From: Nitrospirota bacterium
GTDB taxonomy: Bacteria > Nitrospirota > UBA9217
Length of the DNA: 64,000 bases
Direction of reading: 5' to 3'
NCBI GenBank assembly: GCA_963790205.1
Contig: CAWBNQ010000003.1
Location: 128,001 to 192,000, forward strand
Both the position numbers and the translations under genes were made by a program. Of this stretch, positions 1-8,466 are shown one piece after another. The notes beneath the pieces are model-generated. The model searched no databases. It was not told the DNA's origin and saw only the letters and a program-made list of their open reading frames with translations. How positions within the stretch are numbered: position 1 is the stretch's first letter; every line of letters begins with the position of its first letter.

Positions 1-387
1 GGCATACTGATCAAAGCCGGTGTTAAGAAGGTCGTTGATGCGCGTTTGAACAATAGTTCCCAGCTTGCAGGCTTTGCGAAAAAGGAAGACTTGAGATATT
101 TCTTAAAAGCGCTCGGAAATATCGATTATCATCATACGCCGATTATGGCGCCGACCGGAGAAATTCTTACTGAATATAAGAAGAATAAAGGTGACTGGCA
201 AATTTACGAGAAGAAGTTTCTGGCGCTCATGGAAGAACGGCGGCTTGAGAATGTTGTAAATCCGGCAGAGCTTGATGGGGCATGTTTGCTGTGCAGCGAG
301 GATTCACCGAAACAATGCCATCGCCGACTTGTGGCCGAATATCTGAAAAGCAAATGGGGTAACGTCGATATAGAACATCTTATTTGA
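1..387 (+). CDS. DUF488-family protein (5' end outside window)
   Basis: Frame is open from base 1 (GILIKAGVKKVVDARLNNSSQLAGFAK), with the C-terminal CLLCSE...CHRRLVAE motif typical of DUF488. Confidence 0.85.
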   Translation, partial: GILIKAGVKKVVDARLNNSSQLAGFAKKEDLRYFLKALGNIDYHHTPIMAPTGEILTEYKKNKGDWQIYEKKFLALMEERRLENVVNPAELDGACLLCSEDSPKQCHRRLVAEYLKSKWGNVDIEHLI

Positions 388-1097
388 CAGGGAGGCCTAG
401 CGTGGATATCATCGTTACGGATTTGACGAGATTCGCAAAGGATGATCTGGTTTGCATAGCGGGCATCGACGTAAAATCCAAGCAGTGTATAAGGCCATTG
501 CCCTATATCAAGAAAGAGGTTTGCAAGAAGCTGAAGATATTGCCGGGCGCGATACTGGAGGCGAATTTTACAAAACCGCCGAATGTTAATAAACCGCATA
601 CCGAGGATAGGCACTACAATAAACTTTCATTTAAAGGACCATGCACCTCGGATGAATTTGAAAGTATATTGAAAAGCTCGCTTTATCCCTCGATCAACGA
701 AGGTTTTAACGGCAAAGTGCCTGCTGGCGCCAAGGTGATCCCTCCTGACAGCCCTCCCTCCAGGTCCATTATCACGCTCAAACTGAAACCTACACAAATA
801 GAGATCGTCAGAAATGCATTTGACGCCAAGAATCTGCGGCTGAACATTCTTGACAATGACGATCGGAAGTATTCCTATTTGTCGATCACCGATCTCGGTT
901 TCCACAATTCATTCATTTCGAAAAAAACGGATCCCGATGAACTGAACGAATATGTTCAGGGCCAGAAGAAGCTCTACCTCAGAATTGGTTTGGGTCGTCG
1001 ATATAAGAATCCCACGGACGGGCGAGACGGCTTCTGGATTCAGGTGAATGGGATATATACCTTCCCTGAATTCATGACAAAAGTAAGAACGTATTGA
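384..1097 (+). CDS. Dual OB-fold domain-like protein, usual DUF488 neighbour
   Basis: N-terminal VCIAGID...IRP motif and C-terminal LRIGLGR...VNGI; overlaps the DUF488 stop; lower GC. Confidence 0.55.
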   Translation: MTGRPSVDIIVTDLTRFAKDDLVCIAGIDVKSKQCIRPLPYIKKEVCKKLKILPGAILEANFTKPPNVNKPHTEDRHYNKLSFKGPCTSDEFESILKSSLYPSINEGFNGKVPAGAKVIPPDSPPSRSIITLKLKPTQIEIVRNAFDAKNLRLNILDNDDRKYSYLSITDLGFHNSFISKKTDPDELNEYVQGQKKLYLRIGLGRRYKNPTDGRDGFWIQVNGIYTFPEFMTKVRTY

Positions 1098-1168
1098 AAG
1101 GCGGCGTCATCGTTGATGTCGGGGGACGACTAGGGGCTGTTGTTGAAATTGCGTTGTGTATGCATATC

Positions 1169-1200
1169 AAGGCCGGAGAGAACCCTCTCGGCCTTTTGTT
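1169..1200 (+). terminator. Intrinsic terminator-like hairpin; variants at ~1700-1730 and ~2724-2752
   Basis: AAGGCCGGAG...CTCTC(C)GGCCTTTT upstream of each dsbA-like copy. Confidence 0.6.
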
Positions 1201-1287
1201 TTTCAGCGCCTGTTTTTGGCAGGGCGGGGGAGTGATATTCTTTACTTATCAACAGCAGCCGTCCGGTCGTTTCCGGGGTGATCCAAT

Positions 1288-1701
1288 ATGAATACAACAA
1301 GTGACAAGATGATCGAGATCATCGAATTTACCGATCCTGTCTGTACCTGGTGCTGGGGCAGCGAACCGGTGCTCCGGAAGCTCGAAACCAGGTTCGGCGA
1401 ACAGGTAAAGATCAGCTACATCATGGGCGGGTTGGTCCAGGACATCACGTCATTCTACGACAGTTATAATGACATCGGCGGCGATCCGGACCGTTCCAAT
1501 AAGAATATTGCCAAGCATTGGGTGGATGCGTCGGCACGTCACGGCATGCCGGTAAAGAGCGAGGGCTTCAAGCTCTTTTCCAAAGAACATCCCTCGACGT
1601 ACCCGCAGAACATCGCCTATAAGGCCCACATCTTAGGGTCAGGTCTCTTTTGTTGCATGGAAGCTTGGCGGGGCATCCTTGAATCTGTAGTTATTTTTTA
1701 A
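1288..1701 (+). pseudogene. DsbA/YjbH-like thioredoxin-fold gene copy 1, truncated after about 113 codons
   Basis: DPVCTWCWG motif; similarity to copy 3 stops at ~1626, followed by the transposase end sequence. Confidence 0.9.
1636..1657 (+). repeat. Solo copy of the Y1-transposase terminal repeat
   Basis: GGGTCAGGTCTCTTTTGTTGCA, identical to 4073-4094. Confidence 0.95.
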
Positions 1702-1821
1702 GGCCGGAGGGTGTGCTCTCCGGCCTTTTGATTTTCAGAGCCTGCTTTCGGCATGACGGGGGAGTGATATACTTTATTCATCAACGGCAGCCGACTGGTC
1801 GTCTCCGGGGTATGACTCACT

Positions 1822-2706
1822 ATGAATACAACAAGTGACAAGATGATCGAGATCATTGAATTTACCGATCCTGTCTGTACCTGGTGCTGGGGCAGCGAAC
1901 CGGTGCTCCGGAAGCTCGAAACCAGGTTCGGCGAACAGGTAAAGATCAGCTACATCATGGGCGGGTTGGTCCAGGACATCATGTCATTCTATGACAGTTA
2001 TAATGACATCGGCGGCGACCCGGAACGGTCGAACAAAAACATTGCCAAGCATTGGGTGGATGCGTCGGCACGTCACGGCATGCCGGTAAGGAGCGAGGGC
2101 TTCAAGCTCTTTTCCAAAGAACATCCCTCAACGTACCCGCAGAACATCGCGTATAAGGCCGCACAGCTGCAGGACCAGGCGCTCGCAAACAAGTTCCTTC
2201 GGCGTATCCGGGAAGCGTCGGCTGCCGAGGCGAGGCAGACGAACACGACCGAAGTGCTGCTGGAACTGGCATCGGAAACAGGGCTCGATATTGCCCGCTT
2301 CCTCGATGACTTTACCCGTGGTCCGGCGCAAAAGGCCTTTGAGCAGGACCTTGCGATCACGGCCAAATACGGGGCACGCGGGTTTCCTTCATTTTTACTC
2401 AAATATGGGGAGAAAGAAATGGTGATCCGCGGGTACAAGCGGTATGAAGAGTTCAAGGCGCTGATCGGGCATCTGTCGGGCGGAGAAATACAGGAACTAC
2501 CGGTTTCGGCTGATGAAGGGTCCATCATGGCATTTATAATCCGGTATGGTTCCGTGGCGCTGATCGAGATCCGGATGACATTCGACCTCGGCGATGACGA
2601 ACTGAAGACCGTGATCGACTCGCTCTTGAACAAGCAGCTGGTCCAAAAGCGACATCTTAGGGTCAGGTCTCTTTTGTTGCATGGAGGCTTGGCGGGGCAT
2701 CCTTGA
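1822..2706 (+). CDS. DsbA/YjbH-like copy 2, native C-terminus replaced by a repeat-encoded tail
   Basis: Near-identical to copy 3 up to QKR (2651), then HLRVRSLLLHGGLAGHP read from the end sequence. Confidence 0.85.
   Translation: MNTTSDKMIEIIEFTDPVCTWCWGSEPVLRKLETRFGEQVKISYIMGGLVQDIMSFYDSYNDIGGDPERSNKNIAKHWVDASARHGMPVRSEGFKLFSKEHPSTYPQNIAYKAAQLQDQALANKFLRRIREASAAEARQTNTTEVLLELASETGLDIARFLDDFTRGPAQKAFEQDLAITAKYGARGFPSFLLKYGEKEMVIRGYKRYEEFKALIGHLSGGEIQELPVSADEGSIMAFIIRYGSVALIEIRMTFDLGDDELKTVIDSLLNKQLVQKRHLRVRSLLLHGGLAGHP
2660..2681 (+). repeat. Solo copy of the Y1-transposase terminal repeat
   Basis: GGGTCAGGTCTCTTTTGTTGCA, preceded by ACATCTTA as at 1628. Confidence 0.95.
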
Positions 2707-2843
2707 ATCTGTAGTTATTTGCTAAGGCCGGAGGGCGCGCTCTCCGGCCTTTGATTTTCAGCACCTGCTTTTGGTAGGGCGGGAGAGTGATATACTTTAT
2801 TTATCAAAGGCAGTTGCTGGCCGTCTCCGGGGTATGATTCACT

Positions 2844-3755
2844 ATGAACAAATTAAGTGACAAGATAATCGAGATCATTGAATTTACCGATCCTGTCTGT
2901 ACCTGGTGCTGGGGCAGCGAACCGGTGCTCCGGAAGCTCGAAACCAGGTTCGGCGAACAGGTAAAGATCAGCTACATCATGGGCGGGTTGGTCCAGGACA
3001 TCACGTCGTTCTATGACAGTTTTAACGACATCGGCGGCGACCCGGACCGGTCGAACAAAAACATTGCCAAGCATTGGGTGGATGCGTCGGCACGTCACGG
3101 CATGCCGGTAAGGAGCGAGGGCTTCAAGCTCTTTTCCAAAGATCATCCCTCAACGTACCCGCAGAACATCGCGTATAAGGCCGCACAGATGCAGGACCAG
3201 GCGCTCGCGAACAAGTTCCTCCGGCGTATCCGGGAAGCGTCGGCTGCCGAGGCGAGGCAGACGAACACGACCGAAGTGCTGCTGGAACTGGCATCGGAAG
3301 TAGGGCTCGATATTGCCCGTTTCCTCGATGACTTTACCCATGGTCCGGCGCAAAGGGCCTTTGAACAGGTCCTCGCGCTCACGGCCAAATACGGGGCGCG
3401 CGGGTTTCCTTCTTTTTTACTGAAATATGGAGAGAAAGAAATGCTGATCCGCGGGTACAAGCGGTATGAAGAGTTCAAGGCGCTGATCGGGCATTTGTCG
3501 GGCGGGGAAATCCAGGAACGTCCGGTTTCCGTGGATGAAGGGTCCATCATGGCATTTATAACCCGGTACGGCTCCGTGGCGGTGATAGAGATCCAGATGA
3601 CCTTCGACCTCGGCGATGATGAACTGAAGACCGTGATCGACTCGCTGCTGGGCAAGCAGCTGATCCAAAAGCGCGAAGCAGGCAACGGTTATTTCATCTC
3701 GGCAAAGGCCAGCGCCGCAGCGTGCGATCCCGCAACCGGCGTGTGTTCGATATAG
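2844..3755 (+). CDS. DsbA/YjbH(SpxH)-like thioredoxin-fold protein, full length
   Basis: CTWC motif, GFPS cis-Pro loop, C-terminal domain ending ACDPATGVCSI. Confidence 0.85.
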   Translation: MNKLSDKIIEIIEFTDPVCTWCWGSEPVLRKLETRFGEQVKISYIMGGLVQDITSFYDSFNDIGGDPDRSNKNIAKHWVDASARHGMPVRSEGFKLFSKDHPSTYPQNIAYKAAQMQDQALANKFLRRIREASAAEARQTNTTEVLLELASEVGLDIARFLDDFTHGPAQRAFEQVLALTAKYGARGFPSFLLKYGEKEMLIRGYKRYEEFKALIGHLSGGEIQERPVSVDEGSIMAFITRYGSVAVIEIQMTFDLGDDELKTVIDSLLGKQLIQKREAGNGYFISAKASAAACDPATGVCSI

Positions 3756-4072
3756 GGTCGGAGCGTGCGCATCCCTCATGGCGTTTGCGGAATGCGTTTG
3801 CTTTTTCGCCGCTGAAGCAGTCCCATGCGAAAATTTAGGAGTGCGATTGAGTCCGAGGGTTAAGCATTTCGGATGTCCGAAGACCGCAGGTCAAGTTTCC
3901 GAAATGTACCGAGGACGATTGAGCACGACGTGAAGAATTTTCGCCGGGTGCCCTTCTTTCGGTTACCTTTCTTCGGGCAAGCAAGAAAGGTGACAAAGAG
4001 AATGTATGGAATTTTGAGGGGGCCGTCTAACCCACCTCCCCCAACCCTTCCTTGTCAAGGAGGAGAATCTTA

Positions 4073-4997
4073 GGGTCAGGTCTCTTTTGTTGCATTTTGT
4101 CGTTTTCTCTGCTATCCTTGCCTTATGTCCCGCCCCCTCCGCATAGAATACGCCGGCGCTGTCTACCATGTGACCTCCCGAGGCAACGAGAAGAAGCCGG
4201 TCTTCAAGGATGATCACGACCGGGAAGCGTTCCTCAACACCCTTCGACACGTCAACAAACGGTATAACTGGATCTGCCACGCCTATTGCCTCATGACCAA
4301 TCATTACCACCTGCTCATCGAGACGCCGGAGGGAAATCTGTCCATCGGCATGCGGCAGCTCAACGGTGTGTACACGCAGCTCTTCAATAAGCAACACGGC
4401 AGGAACGGTCACTTGTTCCAAGGCCGCTACAAAGCGATCCTGATCCAGAAGGACAGCCACCTGCTGGAAGTATGCAGATATGTGGTGCTGAATCCGGTGC
4501 GGGCCAATATGGTGGAAGCACCGGAAGCATGGAAATGGTCCAGCTATCTTGCCACGGCGGGAAGGGCGAAGGCGCATCCCTCTCTCACGACGGAGTGGGT
4601 GCTCGGTCAGTTCAGCGGGAAGCAAGGAAAGGCGGAAAGCGAATACCGGCAGTTCGTCAAGTGGGGGATCGGTGAGCAGACGATCTGGACCGCTGTGCGG
4701 GGGCAGGCGCTTCTGGGCGAGGACGACTTTGTCGATACGCTGGTGGACCATCTCCAGAAGAAGAAGGACATCCCCGATATCCCGCGGAGCCAGCGATATG
4801 CAACACGACCGGACCTGCCAAAGCTGCTGCCCGATACAATAAAGAACGATCAGCGGAAGCTGAAGAAAAAGCTGCATGAAGCGGTGGAGAAATACGGTTA
4901 CCATCAGAGCCAGCTTGCGCGGCACCTGGCGGTCCATCGGTCCACGATCAGTCGCTGGCTGCAGGAACAGGAGCGTGCAACAAAAGAGACCTGACCC
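4073..4997 (+). mobile_element. 925-bp element with 22-bp perfect inverted repeats around a Y1 transposase
   Basis: 4073-4094 is the reverse complement of 4976-4997; the transposase stop codon lies inside the right repeat; no clear target duplication. Confidence 0.85.
4125..4994 (+). CDS. REP-associated tyrosine transposase-like (HUH/Y1, IS200-IS605 superfamily) with C-terminal HTH
   Basis: YHVTSRGN, YCLMTNHYHLL (HUH), LFQGRYKA, YVVLNPVRA, WKWSSY; C-terminal QSQLARHLAVHRSTISR. Confidence 0.92.
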   Translation: MSRPLRIEYAGAVYHVTSRGNEKKPVFKDDHDREAFLNTLRHVNKRYNWICHAYCLMTNHYHLLIETPEGNLSIGMRQLNGVYTQLFNKQHGRNGHLFQGRYKAILIQKDSHLLEVCRYVVLNPVRANMVEAPEAWKWSSYLATAGRAKAHPSLTTEWVLGQFSGKQGKAESEYRQFVKWGIGEQTIWTAVRGQALLGEDDFVDTLVDHLQKKKDIPDIPRSQRYATRPDLPKLLPDTIKNDQRKLKKKLHEAVEKYGYHQSQLARHLAVHRSTISRWLQEQERATKET

Positions 4998-5009
4998 TTG
5001 GAGGGGCGC

Positions 5010-5765
5010 ATGGCGCGAATATTCATAACCGGTTCCGCCGACGGTCTTGGCCTCATGGAGGCGCGGCTGCTGGTCAGCCAGGGCCACCAGGTCGTGCTGC
5101 ATGGACGGAGCCGACAGCGGGCAGATGAGGCGCTTTCCAAGGTCCCTGGTGCGCTCTCCGCGGTTGCGGGCGATCTGGCAAGCATCGCGGAAACGAAGTC
5201 CCTTGCGGACCGGGTGAACGAGCTGGGTCCTTTCGATGCCGTGATCCATAATGCAGGCGTCTATCTCGTGCCCCATGGCAGCCGGACCGTCGACGGCCTG
5301 CCGCAGATCTTTGCCGTGAACTCCCTGGCCCCCTATATCCTGACCTGCCTGATCAAGCGGCCGAAGCGCCTGATCTACACGAGCTCTGGTCTCCATCGAA
5401 GCGGCGATGCGAGCTTGAACGACCTGACGCGGGATGCATCGAGCGCCTACGCGGATTCGAAGCTGCACAACGTCATCCTTGCCTTTGCCGTTGCCCGCAA
5501 ATGGCCCGACGTACTGTCCAATGCAGTGGACCCCGGCTGGGCAGCAACGAAGATGGGGGGGCGGGGAGCCCCGGTCAGTGTCGAGGAAGGGGCGCGGACG
5601 CAGGTGTGGCTGGCAGCGAGCCGGGACAAGGAAGCCCTGGTCTCGGGAAGATATTTCCATCATCTACAACCCGGGAGCTGTCACCCGGCTGCGGCGGATC
5701 GCGTGGTGCAGGAAAAGTATTTTTCAGAATGCGCCCGCTTGTCCGGGATCGCGTTCCCTGATTAG
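5010..5765 (+). CDS. Short-chain dehydrogenase/reductase
   Basis: TGSADGLG, HNAG, YADSK motifs; GGAGG RBS directly after the transposon repeat. Confidence 0.9.
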   Translation: MARIFITGSADGLGLMEARLLVSQGHQVVLHGRSRQRADEALSKVPGALSAVAGDLASIAETKSLADRVNELGPFDAVIHNAGVYLVPHGSRTVDGLPQIFAVNSLAPYILTCLIKRPKRLIYTSSGLHRSGDASLNDLTRDASSAYADSKLHNVILAFAVARKWPDVLSNAVDPGWAATKMGGRGAPVSVEEGARTQVWLAASRDKEALVSGRYFHHLQPGSCHPAAADRVVQEKYFSECARLSGIAFPD

Positions 5766-6005
5766 GGGGGAAATCTCACCGGGAACGTTGGTCAACCACT
5801 TTAGCCCTCTCCCAAAAGGGAGAGAGTTGGGTGAGGGGGGACTTTCCCGGGTGTAACAATATTTACTTCGTTCGTATCAGACCCAGGCGTCCGCCCCGAG
5901 ACGGACGATCCCACAAAATACTCCGCTTTACTTTTTCCCGGCAATTGTGCATAATACAAATCCATTACTCATTAACGGACCGGTAAGGTTATCAGGAGGT
6001 TTCCC

Positions 6006-7667
6006 ATGGCATCAGTGAACAGACTGCCCCGTTCGCCCTGGAGGGCGATGATCGAAAGCGCGTTTTACGCAAATTCGGTCCGAAAGACCAGCATGGCCGA
6101 GCTCTACAAGCTTGCGCTCAAACAGCCTGAGGTAATGGCCACGGCCCATCCTTTTTACAAGCCGTCCCAATACGGTTTGCCGAAGGACGCAAAAGTGCTC
6201 GTCTCGAACGACGGCGGAATCGTGGGCCGGACCGCCCGGGCCAGGAGGCTTGTGCGCGAGATGGGCAAGGACCGCGACAAATACCTTCGCATCCTGGGAG
6301 AAGTCACCTTTCAGCTCAACAAGCGCGAAAGCCTGTGGCTCGAGGCCATCGTAGGACTCCACAAAGACTTCATGGTCAAGGCCCATATCCTGAGCCCGGC
6401 CACGGACGCAAAGAACATGTTCGACTGGGGATGCAACTTCACACCCTGGATGAAGCCGTGGAGCGAGGCATATAAAAAATCGAAGAAGCTCGATGAACCG
6501 GACATCCTGGTGATAGCAGATCCCGAGTGGTCAGATCCGGAATTCCCGAGCGGGCTGGTGATCATCGACGAGGAGGAGAACTGCATCGCCATCCTCGGGC
6601 TGCGCTATTTCGGCGAGAGAAAGAAGGGCACCTTGACGCTCGCCTGGACCATCGGCGTGCGGCTCAACATGGTGGCCTGCCACGGCGGCATCAAGACCAT
6701 CGGCAATTACCCGCCCGTGGCCGTGTTCGGGCTTTCCGGCTCCGGCAAGTCGTCACTTACGAACAGCCTCGACCACGACGGCCTGCTCAAGAAGAACGAA
6801 AAGGTCACCGTGATCCACGACGACGCGTTCCTGATCGGGCTTGATGAAAATCTGACGGTAGCGCTCGAGCCCTCCCTCTTCGACAAGACCGATGCCGTCA
6901 AATTCCGCGACCCCATCATCAAATACTTCTATTCGGCCCAGAACGTGGCGGTGACCGACGTCGGGAACGGCAAGCGAGAGATCGTCGGCGAGGACATCCG
7001 GAACGACAACGGCCGGTGCATCAAGTCCCGCGACATGTTCAGCATAGCCGATTCCTGCAGCCGGCCCGGACAGCTCATCTGGCTCCAGAAGGACCAGTCC
7101 CTGCCGCCGGTGATGAAGGTGGCCGACAAGGGCCTGGCGGTCGCCATGGGAGCGTCGCTCTCGACGCTTCGCGCCAAGGGCGTGGAAAACGTTCCCAAGG
7201 AGGAACTGGCGAAGCTCGTGATCGAGCCCTTTGCCAACCCCTTCCGGGTCCATCCGCTCATGGAGGACTGCCGCCAGTTCCTGAAGCTCTTCAAGCTCGG
7301 CACGGAGTGCTTCATCATGAACACGGGACACTTCGGCGTGCCCGGCGAGGAGCTCAAGGTCCCCAAGGAACTCTCCCTGTCCATCCTGACGCAGATGGTG
7401 CGCGGCAGGATCGAGTGGCGCGAGTGGAAGTCCTTCCCGGGTCTTTTCCTGCCCGCGAACGGCATCGACCTTTTCGGCTCGGACTACGACAAGAAATTCA
7501 AACCGTCCCGGAACCCCGAGTATCTCCAGTTCCTCCGCAACCGGATGCAGGACCGCATCACCTTCCTGTCGAACAAGCGCGACATCGAGCGCGACATGGA
7601 GAGCGCGTTCATCGACCCGCTCGTGGCCGCGAGGACGGTGATCGACAAGATATTGAACCCGATATAA
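6006..7667 (+). CDS. Phosphoenolpyruvate carboxykinase (ATP)-like protein
   Basis: YFGERKKG, CHGG, P-loop GLSGSGKS, HDD, EPFANPF. Confidence 0.8.
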   Translation: MASVNRLPRSPWRAMIESAFYANSVRKTSMAELYKLALKQPEVMATAHPFYKPSQYGLPKDAKVLVSNDGGIVGRTARARRLVREMGKDRDKYLRILGEVTFQLNKRESLWLEAIVGLHKDFMVKAHILSPATDAKNMFDWGCNFTPWMKPWSEAYKKSKKLDEPDILVIADPEWSDPEFPSGLVIIDEEENCIAILGLRYFGERKKGTLTLAWTIGVRLNMVACHGGIKTIGNYPPVAVFGLSGSGKSSLTNSLDHDGLLKKNEKVTVIHDDAFLIGLDENLTVALEPSLFDKTDAVKFRDPIIKYFYSAQNVAVTDVGNGKREIVGEDIRNDNGRCIKSRDMFSIADSCSRPGQLIWLQKDQSLPPVMKVADKGLAVAMGASLSTLRAKGVENVPKEELAKLVIEPFANPFRVHPLMEDCRQFLKLFKLGTECFIMNTGHFGVPGEELKVPKELSLSILTQMVRGRIEWREWKSFPGLFLPANGIDLFGSDYDKKFKPSRNPEYLQFLRNRMQDRITFLSNKRDIERDMESAFIDPLVAARTVIDKILNPI

Positions 7668-7832: not shown

Positions 7833-8069
7833 ATGACTATATCAAAGGCTACCATTAAAGGACAAGTGCTTATTCCCGCCAGGCTCAGAAAAAAGTTTAA
7901 TATTAAAAAAGGCACCCGCGTCGCCATATCGGAAGGGGAGGGGAACGTCATCCTGATAAAACCGGTCCCCGACGACCCGATCGAGGCGTCCCGGGGAATG
8001 CTGAAGGGCAAAACATCGATGACGAAGGCCCTGCTGAAGGACCGGCACGAGGAGGCGAAGCGTGGATAG
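7833..8069 (+). CDS. AbrB/MazE/SpoVT-type antitoxin
   Basis: KGQVLIPARLRKKFNIKKG motif; AGGAGG RBS. Confidence 0.9.
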   Translation: MTISKATIKGQVLIPARLRKKFNIKKGTRVAISEGEGNVILIKPVPDDPIEASRGMLKGKTSMTKALLKDRHEEAKRG

Positions 8070-8466
8070 TTCCTACGTCCTCGACAGCTATGCGCTCATT
8101 GCACACCTGGAGGACGAAGCCGGGGGAGAGCAGGTCAGAAAGATTCTTAGGGCAGCTAAGGCAGGGAAGACAAAACTCTATCTTTCAGCGATCAATCTCG
8201 GCGAGCTCTATTACAATACGTTCAGGGAGCGGGGCCGGGAAAAAGCGGACGAAGTGGTGTTCATCACGGAACAACTGCCCATTACTATTGTAAATGCCGA
8301 TATGACTATTACCCTGGAAGCCGCGCGACTGAAGGGCAAGCATCCTGTCGCTTACGCGGACTGTTTTGCCGCGGCGCTCGGAGTTCAAAAAAAGGCCAAG
8401 GTGGTGACGGGCGATCCGGAATTCAAGAAGTACGGTGAGACCGTGTCTGTTGAATGGATCGGATGA
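8062..8466 (+). CDS. vapC: VapC-family PIN toxin
   Basis: YVLDSYAL, NLGEL, YADCFA, VTGDPEF; overlaps the antitoxin gene. Confidence 0.9.
   Translation: MDSSYVLDSYALIAHLEDEAGGEQVRKILRAAKAGKTKLYLSAINLGELYYNTFRERGREKADEVVFITEQLPITIVNADMTITLEAARLKGKHPVAYADCFAAALGVQKKAKVVTGDPEFKKYGETVSVEWIG

Follow-up and report, generated by a model that had tools for sequence, protein, structure and literature searches.

How could three copies of one gene come to lie head to tail, two of them broken off exactly where a transposon end begins? The question arises from a 64,000-nucleotide stretch of a Nitrospirota bacterium (lineage UBA9217; positions 128,001 to 192,000 of the forward strand of contig CAWBNQ010000003.1, assembly GCA_963790205.1, hereafter genome G000), which is referred to below as the window. 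Here, we found that the copies are three diverged alleles of a dsbA-like gene, joined at copies of a transposon end beside the gene of a Y1-HUH transposase that fits the TIRYT class. The class of the element is known, and its gene-scale behavior has not been described before. A preliminary description of the locus had proposed that the enzyme moves units made of an end and a passenger gene and stacks them beside its own gene; the layout is consistent with such movement. We somewhat favor the reading that fragments from other strains, each headed by an end, became joined at nicked TIRYT ends, probably by the enzyme itself.

Organization of the array

The array comprises the following features (positions in the window).
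1138..1287, plus strand: leader of allele 0, with a hairpin at 1169-1196; unlike the leaders of alleles 1 and 2 and shared with genome G026
1288..1626, plus strand: dsbA-like gene, allele 0, codons 1-113 only
1627..1658, plus strand: solo left end 1, with 9 outer bases (the same in other samples) and repeat core 1636-1657
1659..1821, plus strand: leader of allele 1, with a 12-pair hairpin at 1700-1727
1822..2651, plus strand: dsbA-like gene, allele 1, cut inside codon 277 of 303
2652..2682, plus strand: solo left end 2, with 8 outer bases and repeat core 2660-2681
2683..2843, plus strand: leader of allele 2, with a hairpin at 2724-2751
2844..3755, plus strand: dsbA-like gene, allele 2, intact, 303 amino acids, Thioredoxin_5/DSBA
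3820..4063, no strand: dispersed repeat of ~180 bp, then a tract homologous to locus L108, clipped at 4063
4064..4094, plus strand: left end of the element, with outer bases and repeat core 4073-4094, no hairpin
4125..4994, plus strand: TIRYT gene, 289 amino acids, with H60-Y61-H62, Y119, W138-S139-S140 and a C-terminal helix-turn-helix at about 255-286
4976..5008, minus strand: right end of the element, with the repeat core overlapping the stop codon and ~10 outer bases as in the relative at locus L112

Four copies of a 22-nucleotide repeat stand where they had first been reported, in the same orientation at 1636, 2660 and 4073 and inverted at 4976-4997, all without a mismatch. They are the only copies in the whole 4.34-Mb assembly at up to 4 mismatches, and none of 100 shuffled sequences contained any match at up to 3. 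The three plus-strand copies are identical over 29 nucleotides, and the left and right repeats of the element form a perfect inverted repeat of 23 nucleotides. The repeats are the ends of the element that carries the neighboring Y1-HUH gene and lie exactly at the truncations, and the joints are one-sided. As had been noticed, the first two repeats cut off a dsbA-like gene: copy 0 stops at codon 113 (base 1626) and copy 1 inside codon 277 (base 2651). The clipping suspected before the third repeat is real, because the tract in front of it aligns with the homologous locus L108 as far as base 4063 and no further. Each joint has the same order, namely truncated DNA, 8-9 bases of the outer tip of the element and then the repeat. 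The distances from repeat start to start codon are 186, 184 and 52 bases, in agreement with the earlier estimate of about 185 bp twice and then 52 bp. The leaders had been credited with both a hairpin and a promoter; the hairpins of alleles 1 and 2 are present, and a promoter scan of the plus-strand genes found no consensus site.

The 4-mers that precede the three joints differ (GGCC, AGCG and GAGG). No target duplication was found, the longest word common to the flanks of the element being 5 nucleotides, and a tblastn search of the genome returned only the three dsbA-like copies, with the missing 3' parts found nowhere. Simple insertion into dsbA is ruled out, as had been argued, since both displaced halves and target duplication are absent. 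It should also be considered that the assembler may have concatenated haplotypes of three co-occurring strains. This seems very improbable: there is no dsbA homology across the joints, the outer bases are those of real junctions in other samples, and a joint of the same type interrupts a paralogue at another place in this genome, with further such joints in other genomes, even though the genome does look like a metagenome assembly (14 contigs, contamination 3.97%), the three alleles differ at the level of strains and the joints were not seen in other samples. In addition, 29 shared nucleotides would be little for a mis-join inside a 1-Mb contig.

Three separately evolved alleles

The three copies are 7-10% diverged, a feature absent from the preliminary description. 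Synonymous changes account for 10/13, 13/20 and 26/50 of the differences among them, where 20-23% would be expected, and the ratios of non-synonymous to synonymous rates (dN/dS) are 0.07, 0.12 and 0.25. Decay after duplication is therefore excluded, because the changes are mostly synonymous and a gene cut at codon 113 could not have gained them in place. In codons 114-277, alleles 1 and 2 differ from each other at 39/492 sites and from the allele at locus L093 at 36 and 41, so that their mutual distance is like their distance to alleles of unrelated metagenomes. When 12 outside alleles were examined, both states of a difference were present among them in 31/49, 10/13 and 15/20 cases, against a null of 15% for a random new change. 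Thus, dN/dS, site distances and shared states all rule out post-duplication decay of one gene, and the copies are separately evolved alleles. The leader of allele 0, which differs from those of alleles 1 and 2, is also found in genome G026. In the allele trees the three window copies fell in unresolved forks, and therefore no donor is named.

Could the enzyme have acted on its own molecule only, producing local tandem duplications and adjacent deletions, with alleles swapped later by homologous recombination with other strains? Exact local duplications of up to 902 nucleotides exist in relatives, unit 1 (1024 nucleotides) matches the beginning of unit 2, head joint included, and alleles 1 and 2 diverge in patches, the pattern expected of recombination tracts. 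On the other hand, the differences extend from 28 nucleotides inside the head to ~10-25 nucleotides from the cut, and states of allele 0 lie as near as 9 nucleotides to its joint. Recombination tracts would therefore need to extend right up to the border at each of the two joints. In addition, the head that a local duplication would copy is missing from allele 0. On balance, we regard local duplication with later exchange of alleles as rather unlikely, if still the main competitor.

The transposon end and its junctions

The preliminary description had taken the 22-mer for the full end. The 22-mer is indeed part of it, yet the end is longer and takes in 8-9 outer bases that are part of neither the 22-mer nor dsbA. 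These outer bases also precede the repeat at locus L112, after unrelated DNA in the samples X1 and X2 (two runs from one study) and after a cut transposase gene in sample X3. Elsewhere in G000, a similar outer word plus 7 repeat bases cut a paralogue at codon 55.

Duplications at the ends share a fixed outer start. The outer 7-mer was repeated within 32 nucleotides at 38 of 117 ends in 77 loci, compared with 138 of 20000 random positions (0.7%). A perfect tandem duplication was present at 44/196 distinct end sites of relatives (shortest duplication per site only; one row, C1, mis-reduced), starting 5-13 nucleotides outside the core with a weighted mode of 10. Most inner ends of these duplications lay at +1 or +5/+6, the distribution trailing out as far as 891, and exact duplications of 26, 37, 40, 115 and 902 nucleotides had a common outer start. 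A T was possible as the first base in 3/44, and no C|T rule was apparent. The left junction of the element is variable. In sample X4 the dsbA stop is joined to the left end, 311 bases shorter, and in X1 and X2 the joint lies at 4016 (contigs of other samples, five runs; best share 0.40). Together, the end duplications and the sample-variable left junction point to a nick outside the end. Because the outer start is constant across duplication sizes, the nick would lie ~10 bases outside the repeat, with the enzyme held on the 5' tip.

These junctions also bear on a passive origin, in which TIRYT elements insert into an accessory hotspot, their decay or deletion by host recombination leaves solo ends and the modules arrive by other routes. 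Three truncations exactly at the outer tip, two solo ends that stop at the same inner base, duplications of all sizes with a common outer start and the lack of both a target duplication and a displaced gene half all speak against such scars. What they have in their favor is that the locus is an accessory island (47% G+C versus 60% in the backbone), that a whole element is found on one or the other side of dsbA, depending on the locus (L097, L112 and the window), and that insertion sequences (ISs) also land in TIRYT ends. A passive origin is in our view improbable.

The transposase and its class

The 289-amino-acid open reading frame (ORF) contains a Y1_Tnp domain (Pfam, E 6.5e-14). Its C-terminal helix-turn-helix hits were weak (HTH_23, E 2e-4; HTH_28, E 1e-3; both below the Pfam cut-off), and the protein scored above the cut-off of NF047646, the NCBIfam model for REP-associated (repetitive extragenic palindromic) tyrosine transposases. 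It carries the motifs NHYH (59-62), YVVLNP (119-124), FQ and WSS. In an alignment of 35 sequences, H60, Y61, H62, N123, P124 and W138-S140 were invariant and Y119 nearly so. A structure model (pLDDT 86.8) has three confident helices at 243-288, and its best fold match was TnpA-REP (4ER8). The ends fold no better than shuffled sequences (z +0.2 to +1.8), and hairpin recognition was rejected, the ends being unstructured.

By domains, motifs and inverted repeats, the element fits the TIRYT class (TIRYT/TIRtron; Di Nocera et al., 2013, PMC3733652), that is, TnpA-Y1 subclass 2.1, group 2.1.2 (Quentin et al., 2018, PMC6006769), or RAYT group 1 (Bertels et al., 2017, PMC5581495). Subclass 2.1 was found in about 15% of the bacterial strains surveyed (PMC6006769). 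The motif GGGGWSAS, common to most but not all terminal inverted repeats of the class (PMC3733652), is matched here at 7/8 positions (the first base is A) and occurs in full in many distant relatives. The preliminary view that no system of this layout had been described has to be revised, since TIRYT elements have been described (PMC3733652) and nicking, extension and rejoining have been proposed for TnpA-REP (PMC3333891). A literature search in which subscription journals were largely missing found no biochemistry, substrate, cut site or role for subclass 2.1, and no paper on end duplications or gene stacking by the TIRYT class.

Almost all relatives of the enzyme at 70-89% identity came from Nitrospirota assemblies. 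In L112, an element with 91% identity is located upstream of dsbA, and in L095, L105 and L106 dsbA adjoins the dehydrogenase gene without an element; as its position differs, the element has changed place. There were 0 exact matches in viral contigs and no match in 72,556 plasmids. The family profile also picked up a distant Y1 homologue (G000:C3:349302-349823) and a transposase fragment (C2:86850-87245).

Ends in this genome and its relatives

The repeat family was detected in 23/64 genomes of the family (control 0), and this genome contains 22 end-like sites at at least 18 bits, compared with 0 in two shuffles. Among ten hand-chosen genomes, 104 end sites were found in nine, and 64 of the 104 had a neighbor within 15 kb, where 12 would be expected; pairs were in the same direction in 22 cases, back to back in 10, facing at element size in 9 and otherwise facing in 1. 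Genomes G010 and G031 have runs of 7 and 8 co-oriented ends amid accessory ORFs. A scan of this genome and its relatives, as earlier suggested, therefore bears out the idea that co-oriented solo ends form recurring clusters in the accessory regions of relatives, but not a genome-wide cassette system for the exact end, of which only four copies exist.

A second candidate for stacking, L003, gave a mixed picture. Its cut unit has 5 and 7 differences in 361 from other loci and 13 from its neighbor, and cut unit and neighbor both have one change at an otherwise invariant glycine; we do not count it as support for stacking in trans.

Several further sites were observed. At L093:1927 a solo end lies 8 nucleotides after the stop of a nucleotidyltransferase gene pair, and at L108:4806 another lies 15 nucleotides after the stop of a PDC-S06 defense gene, each just before a dsbA leader. 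A second array-like locus of this genome (G000:C1:217300-219100, minus strand) contains two ends and the paralogue that an end fragment truncates at codon 55; it also comprises a small ORF, a further end fragment, a lipoprotein-like ORF and a right end at which short tandem repeats occur. Inside TIRYT-type repeats, four sites contain an IS with a 508-amino-acid ORF, and one site contains a ~140-bp miniature that shares the ends of this IS (G000:C1:543316, C1:218664, C3:24889, C3:182153 and C14:361824). As the insertions lie at nearly the same repeat position, this IS may target TIRYT ends.

A model for the joining of fragments

How might such an array be built? The helix-turn-helix of the enzyme would bind the repeat, which forms no hairpin, and Tyr119 would nick one strand about 6-13 bases outside it, staying on the 5' tip and leaving a 3'-OH on the flank. 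Extension and rejoining could then give tandem copies of the tip, and trimming and rejoining could give adjacent deletions. Rejoining between two molecules would insert a fragment that has an end at its head and whose other border may fall at any base; alternatively, a fragment may be joined on one side and finished by recombination. The outcome would be allele 0, cut; then an end with allele 1, cut; then an end with allele 2; and then an end, the transposase gene and an end. Rejoining between molecules would account at once for cuts at arbitrary bases, the loss of gene halves, the lack of a target duplication and the divergence of the alleles. A precedent exists in TnpA-REP, for which a nick, extension and attack on the complex between tyrosine and 5' phosphate have been proposed for the amplification of bacterial interspersed mosaic elements (BIMEs) (PMC3333891).

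Several points weigh against this joining between molecules. The role of the enzyme here is read from sequence, and the model does not account for the inner joint between a solo end and its cargo. In the five other-sample runs, the joints of the window itself were not seen, no piece spanned the stretch and bases 2690-2700 had no cover. Alleles 1 and 2 have one and the same end-to-leader joint and diverge little in codons 13-150, as might be the case for a local duplicate; within their first 113 codons, 3 synonymous and 8 non-synonymous changes separate them. No end of the 22-mer family precedes allele 0. An end lies within 250 nucleotides upstream of 5/17 close dsbA homologues (3 loci dropped for short flanks) versus 13/5134 long ORFs of this genome. 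This count speaks for recurrence, but its search pattern was drawn up once the sites were known, its background was the whole genome and some of its loci are nearly identical. Among distant dsbA homologues, 0/27 had an upstream end. In this genome, the DUF488-DUF488-DuOB module has at its head a solo end from a second repeat family (G000:C3:127240, 761 bases before window base 1), but no end heads it in 2/2 relatives that have it (in one of the two, an end lies 43 nucleotides after it), and the module was rejected as a conserved end-headed cassette. Finally, the genomes used for pairing of end sites had been picked by hand.

Comparison with known systems

Like other TIRYT/TnpA-Y1 2.1.2 elements, this one has a Y1-HUH gene with a C-terminal helix-turn-helix, inverted repeats near GGGGWSAS, no REP hairpins and scattered solo repeats (PMC3733652, PMC6006769 and PMC5581495). 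It shares with Escherichia coli TnpA-REP the fold, and that enzyme cuts away from the bound repeat, transfers strands in vitro and is proposed to amplify by nicking, extension and rejoining (PMC3333891; PDB 4ER8). TnpA-REP differs in binding GTAG-footed hairpins, cutting at C|T and amplifying short non-coding units (PMC3333891), whereas the array has no hairpin, no C|T rule and units up to gene size. A canonical REPtron was rejected, as no GT[AG]G-footed hairpins flank the gene. IS200/IS605 was likewise rejected (Y---NP instead of Y---Q, 289 amino acids versus short core-only proteins, NF033573 at 17.6 bits versus a cut-off of 55 and no hairpins).

The preliminary description had invoked IS91/ISCR, which, like the present locus, combines an HUH enzyme with no target duplication, one fixed and one variable end and the carriage of neighboring genes (PMC13181058). 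The layout and allele divergence fit a one-ended mobilization of the IS91 kind, as judged from the nucleotide record. Membership was nevertheless rejected on end structure and target: the ends here are inverted repeats, unlike the oriIS/terIS ends, which have none, and three different 4-mers precede the joints instead of a fixed tetranucleotide target (CTTG, GTTC or GTCC) (PMC13181058). A subclass 2.1 TnpA-REP beside prochlorosin genes has been proposed as a diversifier of neighboring genes (10.1101/2020.03.09.984088). That system is of the same subclass, with whole and truncated copies interspersed with cargo; no inverted repeats were found there, and an added note of its authors states that a causal link was not shown (10.1101/2020.03.09.984088). 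The likeness to integrons that had also been suggested lies in layout only: co-oriented accessory units with short recognition sites between them stand beside an enzyme gene, and defense cargo occurs. Integrons use the tyrosine recombinase IntI and an attI site, and attC hairpins close whole, mostly promoterless genes. Here, the sites form no hairpins, and the units have leaders of their own and break off within genes at arbitrary positions. No integrase was found among the neighboring proteins scanned, which did not include every ORF of the island. With unstructured sites and 2/3 cargo genes cut, integron membership was rejected.

Neighboring features

Two features flank the array.
1..1097, plus strand: end of a DUF488-DUF488-DuOB module, candidate defense system PDC-M45 (Pfam, PADLOC; PDC-M45B/C)
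5010..5765, plus strand: short-chain dehydrogenase gene, directly after dsbA in the element-free loci L095, L105 and L106

The low-G+C island (window 1-1097 and G000:C3:122337-127954) also codes for a 1340-amino-acid protein with weak STAND NTPase hits and for a 292-amino-acid protein without a family hit. The dispersed non-coding repeat of ~180 bp (window 3820-4000) occurs at about 8 more places in the genome and at many in relatives. Two similar purine/pyrimidine palindromic tracts with a REP-like look lie at 5795-5845 and 4030-4063, the latter clipped by the left end. An antisense open frame of 566 codons (3963-5663, minus strand) over the transposase and dehydrogenase genes is probably a shadow frame. 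The dsbA-TIRYT regions precede phosphoenolpyruvate carboxykinase genes in both the window (6006-7667, ATP type) and L112 (L112:2518-4305, GTP type); as these downstream genes belong to different families, orthology of the hotspot across L108/L112 was not accepted. A small two-gene pair at 7833-8466 resembles an AbrB-type antitoxin with a PIN-domain toxin.

Implications

The three alleles provide sequence evidence that the joints connect DNA of different ancestry. The footprints predict a nick 6-13 bases outside an unstructured repeat and Tyr119-dependent joining. If joining between molecules is true, it would be a new route for the assembly of bacterial defense and accessory islands, carried out by a small DNA-joining enzyme with a 30-base site. 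More tentatively, and with somewhat less than even confidence, we propose that TIRYT nucleases may be a widespread system of integrase-free gene capture, in which solo ends in accessory regions serve as both origins and acceptors and build polar arrays of defense and accessory genes. In that case, cassette arrays could arise in a third way, in addition to integrons and IS91/ISCR. Whatever DNA lies downstream of an end would become a unit, to be pasted at another end either complete or truncated, and the present locus would document three captures in succession, from different strains.

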